Origin: Escherichia coli
Lineage (GTDB): Bacteria; Pseudomonadota; Gammaproteobacteria; Enterobacterales; Enterobacteriaceae
Assembly (NCBI RefSeq): GCF_041886205.1
Contig: NZ_CP169029.1
Reading direction: 5' to 3' (one strand)
DNA: 64,000 nucleotides
The position numbers were made by a program, and so were the translations under genes. Within the stretch, counting starts at the first letter, position 1; each line of letters begins with the position of its first letter. The notes under the pieces are model-generated. The model was not told the origin of the DNA. It ran no database searches and saw nothing but the letters and a program-made list of their open reading frames with translations. Positions 9,617 through 9,870 of the stretch are shown in pieces.

Positions 9617-9870
9617 GCCTGATGCGACGCTGACGCGTCTTATCAGGCCTACGCGCTGTGTTTTTGTAGGCCGGATAAGCAAAGCGCATCTGGCATTCAG
9701 CGCCTGATGCGACGCTGGCGCGTCTTATCAGGCCTACGCGTTCCGATTTTGTAGGCCGGATAAGCAAAGCGCATCCGGCATTCAACGCCTGATGCGACGC
9801 TGGCGCGTCTTATCAGGCCTACACGCTGCGATTTTGTAGGCCGGATAAGCAAAGCGCATCCGGCACGAAG
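9617..9870. repeat. Three tandem ~85-bp BIME units (paired inverted REP sequences) between araA and araD
   Basis: gcctgatgcgacgctg[a/g]cgcgtcttatcaggcctac ... gtaggccggataagcaaagcgcatc[c/t]ggca recurs starting at 9617, 9702 and 9787. Confidence 0.85.

Follow-up and report, generated by a model that had tools for sequence, protein, structure and literature searches.

A three-unit BIME-2 array in the spacer between araA and araD of the Escherichia coli araBAD operon

The spacer between araA and araD in the stretch of Escherichia coli DNA analysed here (64,000 nucleotides, hereafter the window) is filled by a tandem array of REP sequences. This array is the BIME-2 of the E. coli araBAD operon, and its anatomy fits that class. 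The explanation that best covers the observations overall, and that is very likely to be right, is that a three-unit BIME-2 in the araBAD spacer serves as a gyrase site in DNA and as a set of RNA hairpins that most likely protect the upstream message and mildly damp araD, and that it is neither coding nor a site for IHF. The element itself, its class, its variability among strains and the cleavage of the araA-araD locus by gyrase are already known.

The upstream cistron, araA, encodes L-arabinose isomerase and occupies 8092-9594 on the plus strand, where it scores 897.9 bits with the NCBIfam equivalog model NF002795 (cut-off 622). Its stop codon, TAA, is at 9592-9594, and RefSeq annotates araA on identical sequence. 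The downstream cistron, araD, encodes L-ribulose-5-phosphate 4-epimerase and occupies 9879-10574 on the same strand (NCBIfam equivalog TIGR00760, 449 bits against a cut-off of 389.1). A Shine-Dalgarno sequence for araD, AAGGAG, can be read at 9868-9873 (+), 5 nucleotides before the ATG, and is kept in alleles with one, two, three and four repeat units. NCBIfam equivalog models give the gene order as araC (on the minus strand), araB, araA, araD and polB, and E. coli strain wlxctx60 matches the segment 9450-10000 with 100% identity. In all five genomes whose RefSeq annotation was inspected, including K-12 MG1655, a spacer with no coding sequence inside it separates the annotated araA and araD genes. 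The K-12 RefSeq record that was examined has no repeat_region features at the araA-araD locus.

An internal promoter for araD and an intrinsic terminator after araA were both considered, and both are excluded by a scan of 9300-10200, which found no sigma-70-like promoter and no intrinsic terminator. As regards termination, no T run follows any of the REP hairpins on the sense strand. Since 9300-10200 holds neither a promoter-like nor a terminator-like signal, expression of araD must come by read-through from upstream, and the spacer, which holds no such signal, is transcribed inside the PBAD-driven araBAD message.

Tandem Repeats Finder places the array at 9614-9865, with a period of 85, 3.0 copies, 93% matches, no indels and a score of 448. 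A repeat search finds three 95-nucleotide copies in register that begin at 9601, 9686 and 9771, a spacing of 85 nucleotides. Each unit is composed of a 36-nucleotide Z2-type REP, a 13-nucleotide linker, an inverted 30-nucleotide Y-type REP and a 6-nucleotide linker. The three 36-nucleotide REPs correspond to GCCTGATGCGACGCTGGCGCGTCTTATCAGGCCTAC and alternate with the three inverted 30-nucleotide REPs, which correspond to GTAGGCCGGATAAGCAAAGCGCATCCGGCA. A GTAG or CTAC foot is present in all six REPs, whose predicted stems contain internal mismatches. Variation from unit to unit affects 5 of the 13 columns of the tail-to-tail linker, versus 2 of 66 columns in the REPs. The array fills the spacer, which is 284 bp long, and is wholly extragenic. 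Eight matches to the REP pattern were observed in the window, where 0.01 are expected, and the array region folds 5.4 standard deviations better than shuffled sequence (z-score -5.4), so the array is not a product of chance.

The first complete REP is preceded by a partial fourth copy, GCATCAGGTATGTAAC, which spans 16 nucleotides (9601-9616, +) and was recognized from its register with the 95-nucleotide copies. It comprises the 3' arm of a Y-type REP and a head-to-head linker, and begins 6 nucleotides past the araA stop codon. Its resemblance to GCATCCGGCATTCAGC is greater in other Escherichia (loci L010 and L044). Unit 1 begins with a Z2-type REP at 9617-9652 (+), which is in the iREP orientation, with CTAC at its 3' end, and has a predicted hairpin of -21.4 kcal/mol. 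It continues with the tail-to-tail linker GCGCTGTGTTTTT (9653-9665), a Y-type REP with GTAG at its 5' end (9666-9695, +; predicted hairpin -12.1 kcal/mol) and the head-to-head linker TTCAGC (9696-9701). Unit 2 consists of a Z2-type REP that is identical to that of K-12 (9702-9737, +), the tail-to-tail linker GCGTTCCGATTTT (9738-9750), a Y-type REP (9751-9780, +; predicted hairpin -14.3 kcal/mol) and the head-to-head linker TTCAAC (9781-9786). By the same dissection of the sequence, unit 3 consists of a Z2-type REP (9787-9822, +), the tail-to-tail linker ACGCTGCGATTTT (9823-9835) and a Y-type REP (9836-9865, +). The 3' foot of this last REP is 2 nucleotides from the araD Shine-Dalgarno sequence and 13-14 nucleotides from the araD ATG.

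An earlier reading of this DNA, made from the sequence alone, had described three head-to-tail units of about 85 bp, each with a convergent REP pair. The period of 85, the 3.0 copies and the dissection into REPs uphold that description. The limits that it gave, 9617-9870, are exact at the start, which coincides with the first REP, but run 5 nucleotides past the end of the last REP (9865), and position 9870 falls inside the araD Shine-Dalgarno sequence.

In Ton-Hoang 2012 (PMC3333891), BIME-2 elements are tandem arrays of several copies of z2 and y REPs, separated by short linkers, and the number of copies differs among strains. The araA-araD array has z2 and y REPs in alternation, the GTAG/CTAC foot, a tandem arrangement with short linkers and an extragenic location. 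Its composition finds independent support in Rfam, because the naRNA4 model, which was built from the Y and Z2 units of REP325, aligns over its full length to the head-to-head pairs of the array, with the REPs falling on its Z2 and Y halves.

The same element has been catalogued in K-12. Table DS3 of Sutormin 2019 (PMC6379681) lists 'BIMEs2 66566-66813, 247 bp, araD-araA', and these coordinates map to 9616-9863 of the window. The K-12 array shares with ours the locus, the 284-bp spacer, the three units, the z2 and y composition and the short linkers. The two are 96.5% identical, differing at 10 of 284 positions in the comparison with MG1655. Units 2 and 3 show no difference in any of their four REPs, and five of the ten substitutions are in tail-to-tail linkers. 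Among the differences, C to T at 9691 weakens the first Y hairpin, and in the first Z2 a substitution at 9645 restores a base pair. Given the mapped coordinates and the 96.5% identity, both the element and its interaction with gyrase are already published.

That interaction has been studied at the K-12 araD-araA BIME-2, where Sutormin 2019 (PMC6379681) reports three gyrase cleavage sites with ciprofloxacin and three with rifampicin plus ciprofloxacin. The same paper notes that Espeli & Boccard 1997 found two cuts at this element. Cleavage at the locus was detected with ciprofloxacin, and none was detected with microcin B17 or oxolinic acid. The gyrase signal of BIME-2 elements goes up under a transcription block (Sutormin 2019, PMC6379681), which points to gyrase sites that are independent of transcription. 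At the DNA level, the array in the window would thus be a strong, transcription-independent site of gyrase binding and cleavage, as judged from the experiment on the orthologous K-12 array. The sequence-only reading had attributed gyrase binding to arrays of this kind, and the K-12 orthologue is documented as a cleavage site in vivo.

At the RNA level, six hairpins are predicted within the array, of -21.4 kcal/mol for the Z2 REPs and -12 to -14 kcal/mol for the Y REPs. Six stable hairpins would most likely block 3'-to-5' exonucleases and protect the araB-araA segment upstream. They may also partly cut transcription into araD, with only mild damping expected. Loss of araD causes sensitivity to arabinose through accumulation of L-ribulose-5-phosphate. 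Because this loss is toxic on arabinose, any damping of araD must be mild, and strong damping is unlikely. Protection of the araBA mRNA together with damped read-through into araD is the most likely role of the array in RNA, as judged from REP325, malE-malF and genome-wide REP statistics. A literature search found no ara-specific transcript or protein data that compare araA and araD in the presence and absence of the array. The only paper found for the araA-araD pair was an unrelated one on strain engineering, and a search that combined the two genes with REPs found none.

The best experimental model for the effect of the array on its operon is REP325 (naRNA4, yjdM-yjdN), which is likewise a tandem BIME-2 and lies within one operon, between two genes of the same orientation. 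This array of six Y and Z2 units stabilizes the mRNA of the upstream gene and attenuates the downstream gene, and the attenuation is partly Rho-dependent. REP325 differs from the ara array in having six units instead of three, and 77-nucleotide units plus spacers instead of an 85-nucleotide period. At ara, the Y hairpin has a shorter apical part (GCAAAGC) than in REP325 (GGCGTTTACGCC), and the head-to-head linker is 6 nucleotides at ara versus about 12 in REP325. Stabilizers of the malE-malF type are similar to the array in that they are stable REP hairpins, are intercistronic and lie 3' of a highly expressed cistron. For 146 REP-containing tandem gene pairs, the median log-transformed ratio of upstream to downstream expression is 0.96, versus -0.09 for controls. 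Harris 2026 stresses that the effects of REPs vary with their context and that, as a rule, terminal REPs do not go with longer mRNA half-lives.

REP-dependent stalling of ribosomes at stop codons is a different kind of effect. According to RepRanger 2025, which cites Liang, Rudd & Deutscher 2015 for this point, stalling needs a REP that is at most 15 nucleotides from the stop codon, whereas the first complete REP here begins 22 nucleotides after the araA TAA. An alternative 9-bp hairpin is predicted in which the leftover Y arm (9601-9609) pairs with the 5' arm of the first Z2 (9617-9625), at -14.8 kcal/mol. It starts at +6 from the araA stop codon, which is inside the reported stalling range, but it is weaker than the canonical Z2 fold (-21.7 kcal/mol). 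The stem at 9601-9625 is perfect in the window strain and has one mismatch in K-12.

The number of units was counted in other E. coli genomes by using a query in which the 3' end of araA is joined straight to the 5' end of araD. Because the array was left out of the query, the ranking of genomes is independent of it. From the 5,398 matching genomes, 60 were sampled at even intervals of rank, and 59 were informative. Three units in a 284-bp spacer were found in 27 of the 59 genomes, and one unit plus a BoxC element, in a spacer of 168 bp, in 16. Twelve genomes have two units (199 bp), and the remaining 4 of 59 have a single unit (114 bp). No allele with zero units or with at least four units occurs among the 59 sampled E. 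coli genomes. Records of O157:H7 EDL933 have two units, and a four-unit allele with a 369-bp spacer is present in a genome labelled E. coli SCPM-O-B-8794 (L010). Copy number thus ranges from one to four units when REP units are counted across strains, in agreement with the earlier claim that it differs between strains.

The alleles partly track the flanking haplotype, as three units are present in 11 of 11 sampled genomes with 98.3% flank identity. Copy number therefore changes only infrequently, and not by hypermutation. In the four-unit allele of L010, three of the four Y REPs have GCAG in place of GTAG, which suggests that an already mutated unit was amplified by local duplication. GTAG is the tetranucleotide required for binding by TnpA-REP. 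The concentration of unit-to-unit differences in linkers and the GTAG-to-GCAG change common to three L010 units point to whole units having been duplicated locally, not inserted repeatedly. Copy number would then change as local duplications and deletions arise between the 85-bp direct repeats, perhaps with assistance from the REP-associated transposase TnpA-REP. Since alleles of one to four units and the BoxC-replacement allele are common, the exact copy number is not strongly constrained.

In three genomes, XL1-Blue (H37), 10035210-2 (H38) and SYNB1934 (H100), the match ends at or inside the array or covers araD only. These cases are consistent with deletions, engineered in the two laboratory strains, that end at or near the ara BIME.

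The BoxC allele is found in strain 042 (L003, 446-613) and in the 16 of 59 sampled genomes counted above. It keeps one BIME-2 unit, and a GC-rich element replaces units 2 and 3. This element belongs to the triplex-motif repeats known as BoxC, PIT or TMECO, and its core, CCCTCGCCCCTTTGGGGAGAGGGCCGGGGTGAGGGG, has exactly the sequence of TMECO no. 3 of K-12 (Holder 2015, Table 1; PMC4666352). The element is dispersed and occupies a median of 12 places in an E. coli genome. BoxC resembles the array in occupying the araA-araD spacer, which it does in roughly one in four E. coli strains as well as in Kluyvera and Phytobacter, but it belongs to a different, unrelated family of repeats and is absent from the window.

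The junction was also examined beyond E. coli, by using a degenerate DNA pattern derived from the conserved 3' end of araA. This pattern found 51 enterobacterial loci, of which 48 have a measurable spacer. Escherichia sp. MOD1-EC7003 has three units. Salmonella, most Citrobacter and some Enterobacter have a single inverted REP pair (spacers of 86-105 bp), and many Enterobacter, Klebsiella, Kosakonia and Atlantibacter have one simple hairpin (spacers of 47-60 bp). In Klebsiella sp. BIGb0407 (L036) and Citrobacter freundii M-21 (L046), the simple hairpin is GC-rich and is followed by a T run, as in an intrinsic terminator; if this hairpin is functional, araD in these two species would need read-through or a promoter of its own. 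BoxC-like elements are found at the junction in Kluyvera (L033 and L049) and Phytobacter (L012).

The hairpin at the junction is supplied variously by a REP pair, a single palindrome, a BoxC element or a terminator-like stem. The minimum free energy of the spacer is -15 kcal/mol or lower in 47 of the 48 species, the sole exception being Citrobacter sp. MGH106 (L032), which has 11 bp between araA and araD and no hairpin. A Y-like REP is present in 22 of the 48 species, and in 20 of these 22, representing several genera, it ends 11-14 nucleotides before the araD ATG. A stable hairpin beside the araD ribosome-binding site is thus retained though the repeat that supplies it changes, which is the one mildly new observation here. 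The retained hairpin fits a role in RNA, and equally well fits a permissive site that attracts palindromic repeats.

It is possible, though doubtful, that the array is for the most part a selfish or neutral passenger with no function specific to this locus, so that gyrase binding and RNA hairpins are by-products. At a similarly tentative level, such a passenger would be a non-autonomous REP/BIME element that sits in a permissive spacer and owes its spread and amplification to the TnpA-REP (RAYT) transposase or to replication slippage. This account overlaps with our main explanation. The range of one to four units and the replacement of two units by BoxC in 16 of 59 sampled genomes speak in its favour, as do closely related Enterobacter species that differ in whether they have a Y REP (47-bp versus 86-bp spacers) and the 11-bp, hairpin-free junction of Citrobacter sp. 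MGH106. REPs are also scattered through the window, and TnpA-REP cleaves and recombines BIMEs in vitro (Ton-Hoang 2012, PMC3333891). However, the element is present in all 59 sampled E. coli genomes, and the folding energy of -15 kcal/mol or lower in 47 of 48 species holds whatever repeat family gives the hairpin. The placement of Y-like REPs 11-14 nucleotides before the araD ATG in 20 species of several genera also argues for more than a passenger, and gyrase cleavage at the K-12 locus has been measured, not just predicted (PMC6379681).

A bolder proposal is that the junction is a selected control point at the RNA level across Enterobacteriaceae, and that the number of units in Escherichia (one to four, or one plus BoxC) is a lineage-specific dial for the ratio of AraB and AraA to AraD. 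We regard this as rather improbable. If it were true, the number of units would also set the tolerance of each lineage to toxic L-ribulose-5-phosphate. Independently of this proposal, the natural alleles with one, two, three and four units and with BoxC are a ready series for relating BIME copy number to the expression of flanking genes in an operon. The effect of copy number on neighbouring operon genes is debated for REPs in general, and araBAD/PBAD is among the most widely used expression systems.

It is very improbable that the units are genes for naRNA-like sRNAs, which would bind HU, bridge cruciforms and condense the chromosome, as proposed for naRNA4 of REP325. The head-to-head Y and Z2 pair at 9754-9819 (+) reaches 60.2 bits with the Rfam naRNA4 model (RF02564), whose gathering score is 59.5. 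Two further pairs score 55.7 bits (9669-9734, below the gathering score) and 33.4 bits, and Qian 2015 proposed that other sequences like REP325 could have the same role. However, the threshold is passed by 0.7 bits and by one pair only, and the match is to common BIME-2 repeat sequence, not to a specific gene. The model in effect fits any BIME-2 head-to-head pair. The Y hairpin and the linker are also shorter than in the model, with 66 nucleotides aligned to 77 positions. Moreover, the array has no promoter of its own and is transcribed only on arabinose induction of the operon. HU binding and a nucleoid role are disputed even for REP325. In a 2026 preprint whose authors include S. Adhya, senior author of the 2015 naRNA4 paper, deletion or overexpression of REP325 left nucleoid volume unchanged, and neither a stable HU-cruciform-naRNA4 complex nor REP-REP contacts in Hi-C were found.

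The array is even less likely to be an IHF-binding BIME of the RIB/RIP or BIME-1 class, although one BIME family does bind IHF (Ton-Hoang 2012, PMC3333891). According to the same paper, BIME-1 elements are single-copy combinations of z1 and y whose long, conserved L linker often has an IHF site. The array shares with BIME-1, RIB and RIP elements a Y-type REP with an inverted partner and an extragenic location, but has neither the single-copy arrangement, the z1 REP nor the long L linker with its IHF site: it is tandem, and its linkers, of 13 and 6 nucleotides, are too short for the L motif. A scan of both strands of 9595-9878 for the IHF core WATCAANNNNTTR, with at most one mismatch, found no match and so rules out an IHF site there, whereas the whole window has 57 such matches. 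The sequence-only reading had also named IHF as a ligand of such arrays; IHF sites belong to the L linker of BIME-1, and with no core in the spacer this part of the claim does not hold.

The two minus-strand open reading frames that a mechanical list places here, at 9591-9785 (64 amino acids) and 9782-10003 (73 amino acids), almost certainly do not encode real small proteins, open though their frames are for 64 and 73 codons. Both begin with TTG, neither RefSeq nor PGAP annotates a coding sequence at this place in five of five genomes, and a Pfam search of the four open reading frames that overlap the array gave no match at E <= 1. The peptides arise from one and the same REP read in shifted frames, and the frame at 9782-10003 is antisense to the start of araD. 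The set of frames also changes with the allele: 64 and 73 amino acids with three units, one fused frame of 80 amino acids with one unit, and 98 amino acids with BoxC. Frames split and fuse with copy number because 85 leaves a remainder of 1 on division by 3, so that each unit shifts the frame by one. The overlapping frames can thus be ruled out as genes by the absence of Pfam matches and their instability across alleles, and the earlier view that the small minus-strand frames are artefacts is borne out by this instability together with the TTG starts, the lack of Pfam matches and the RefSeq annotation of the five genomes. In an annotation, the spacer should be marked as a BIME-2 repeat region, without the two minus-strand frames and without the attribution to IHF.

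Several other elements were observed in the window. A second BIME, at 16765-16847 (+), consists of a single head-to-head pair of Y and Z2 and scores 75.8 bits with the naRNA4 model, above the ara units. The REP consensus pattern detects more copies at 4257-4289 (-) and 37164-37195 (+), and an inverted pair at 51843-51872 (+) and 51889-51920 (-). Two structured RNAs that are unrelated to the array also score above their Rfam gathering scores: a TPP riboswitch at 819-918 (+), with 65.8 bits, and the ES003 sRNA at 46789-46841 (-), which has 87.4 bits and is identical to the consensus.
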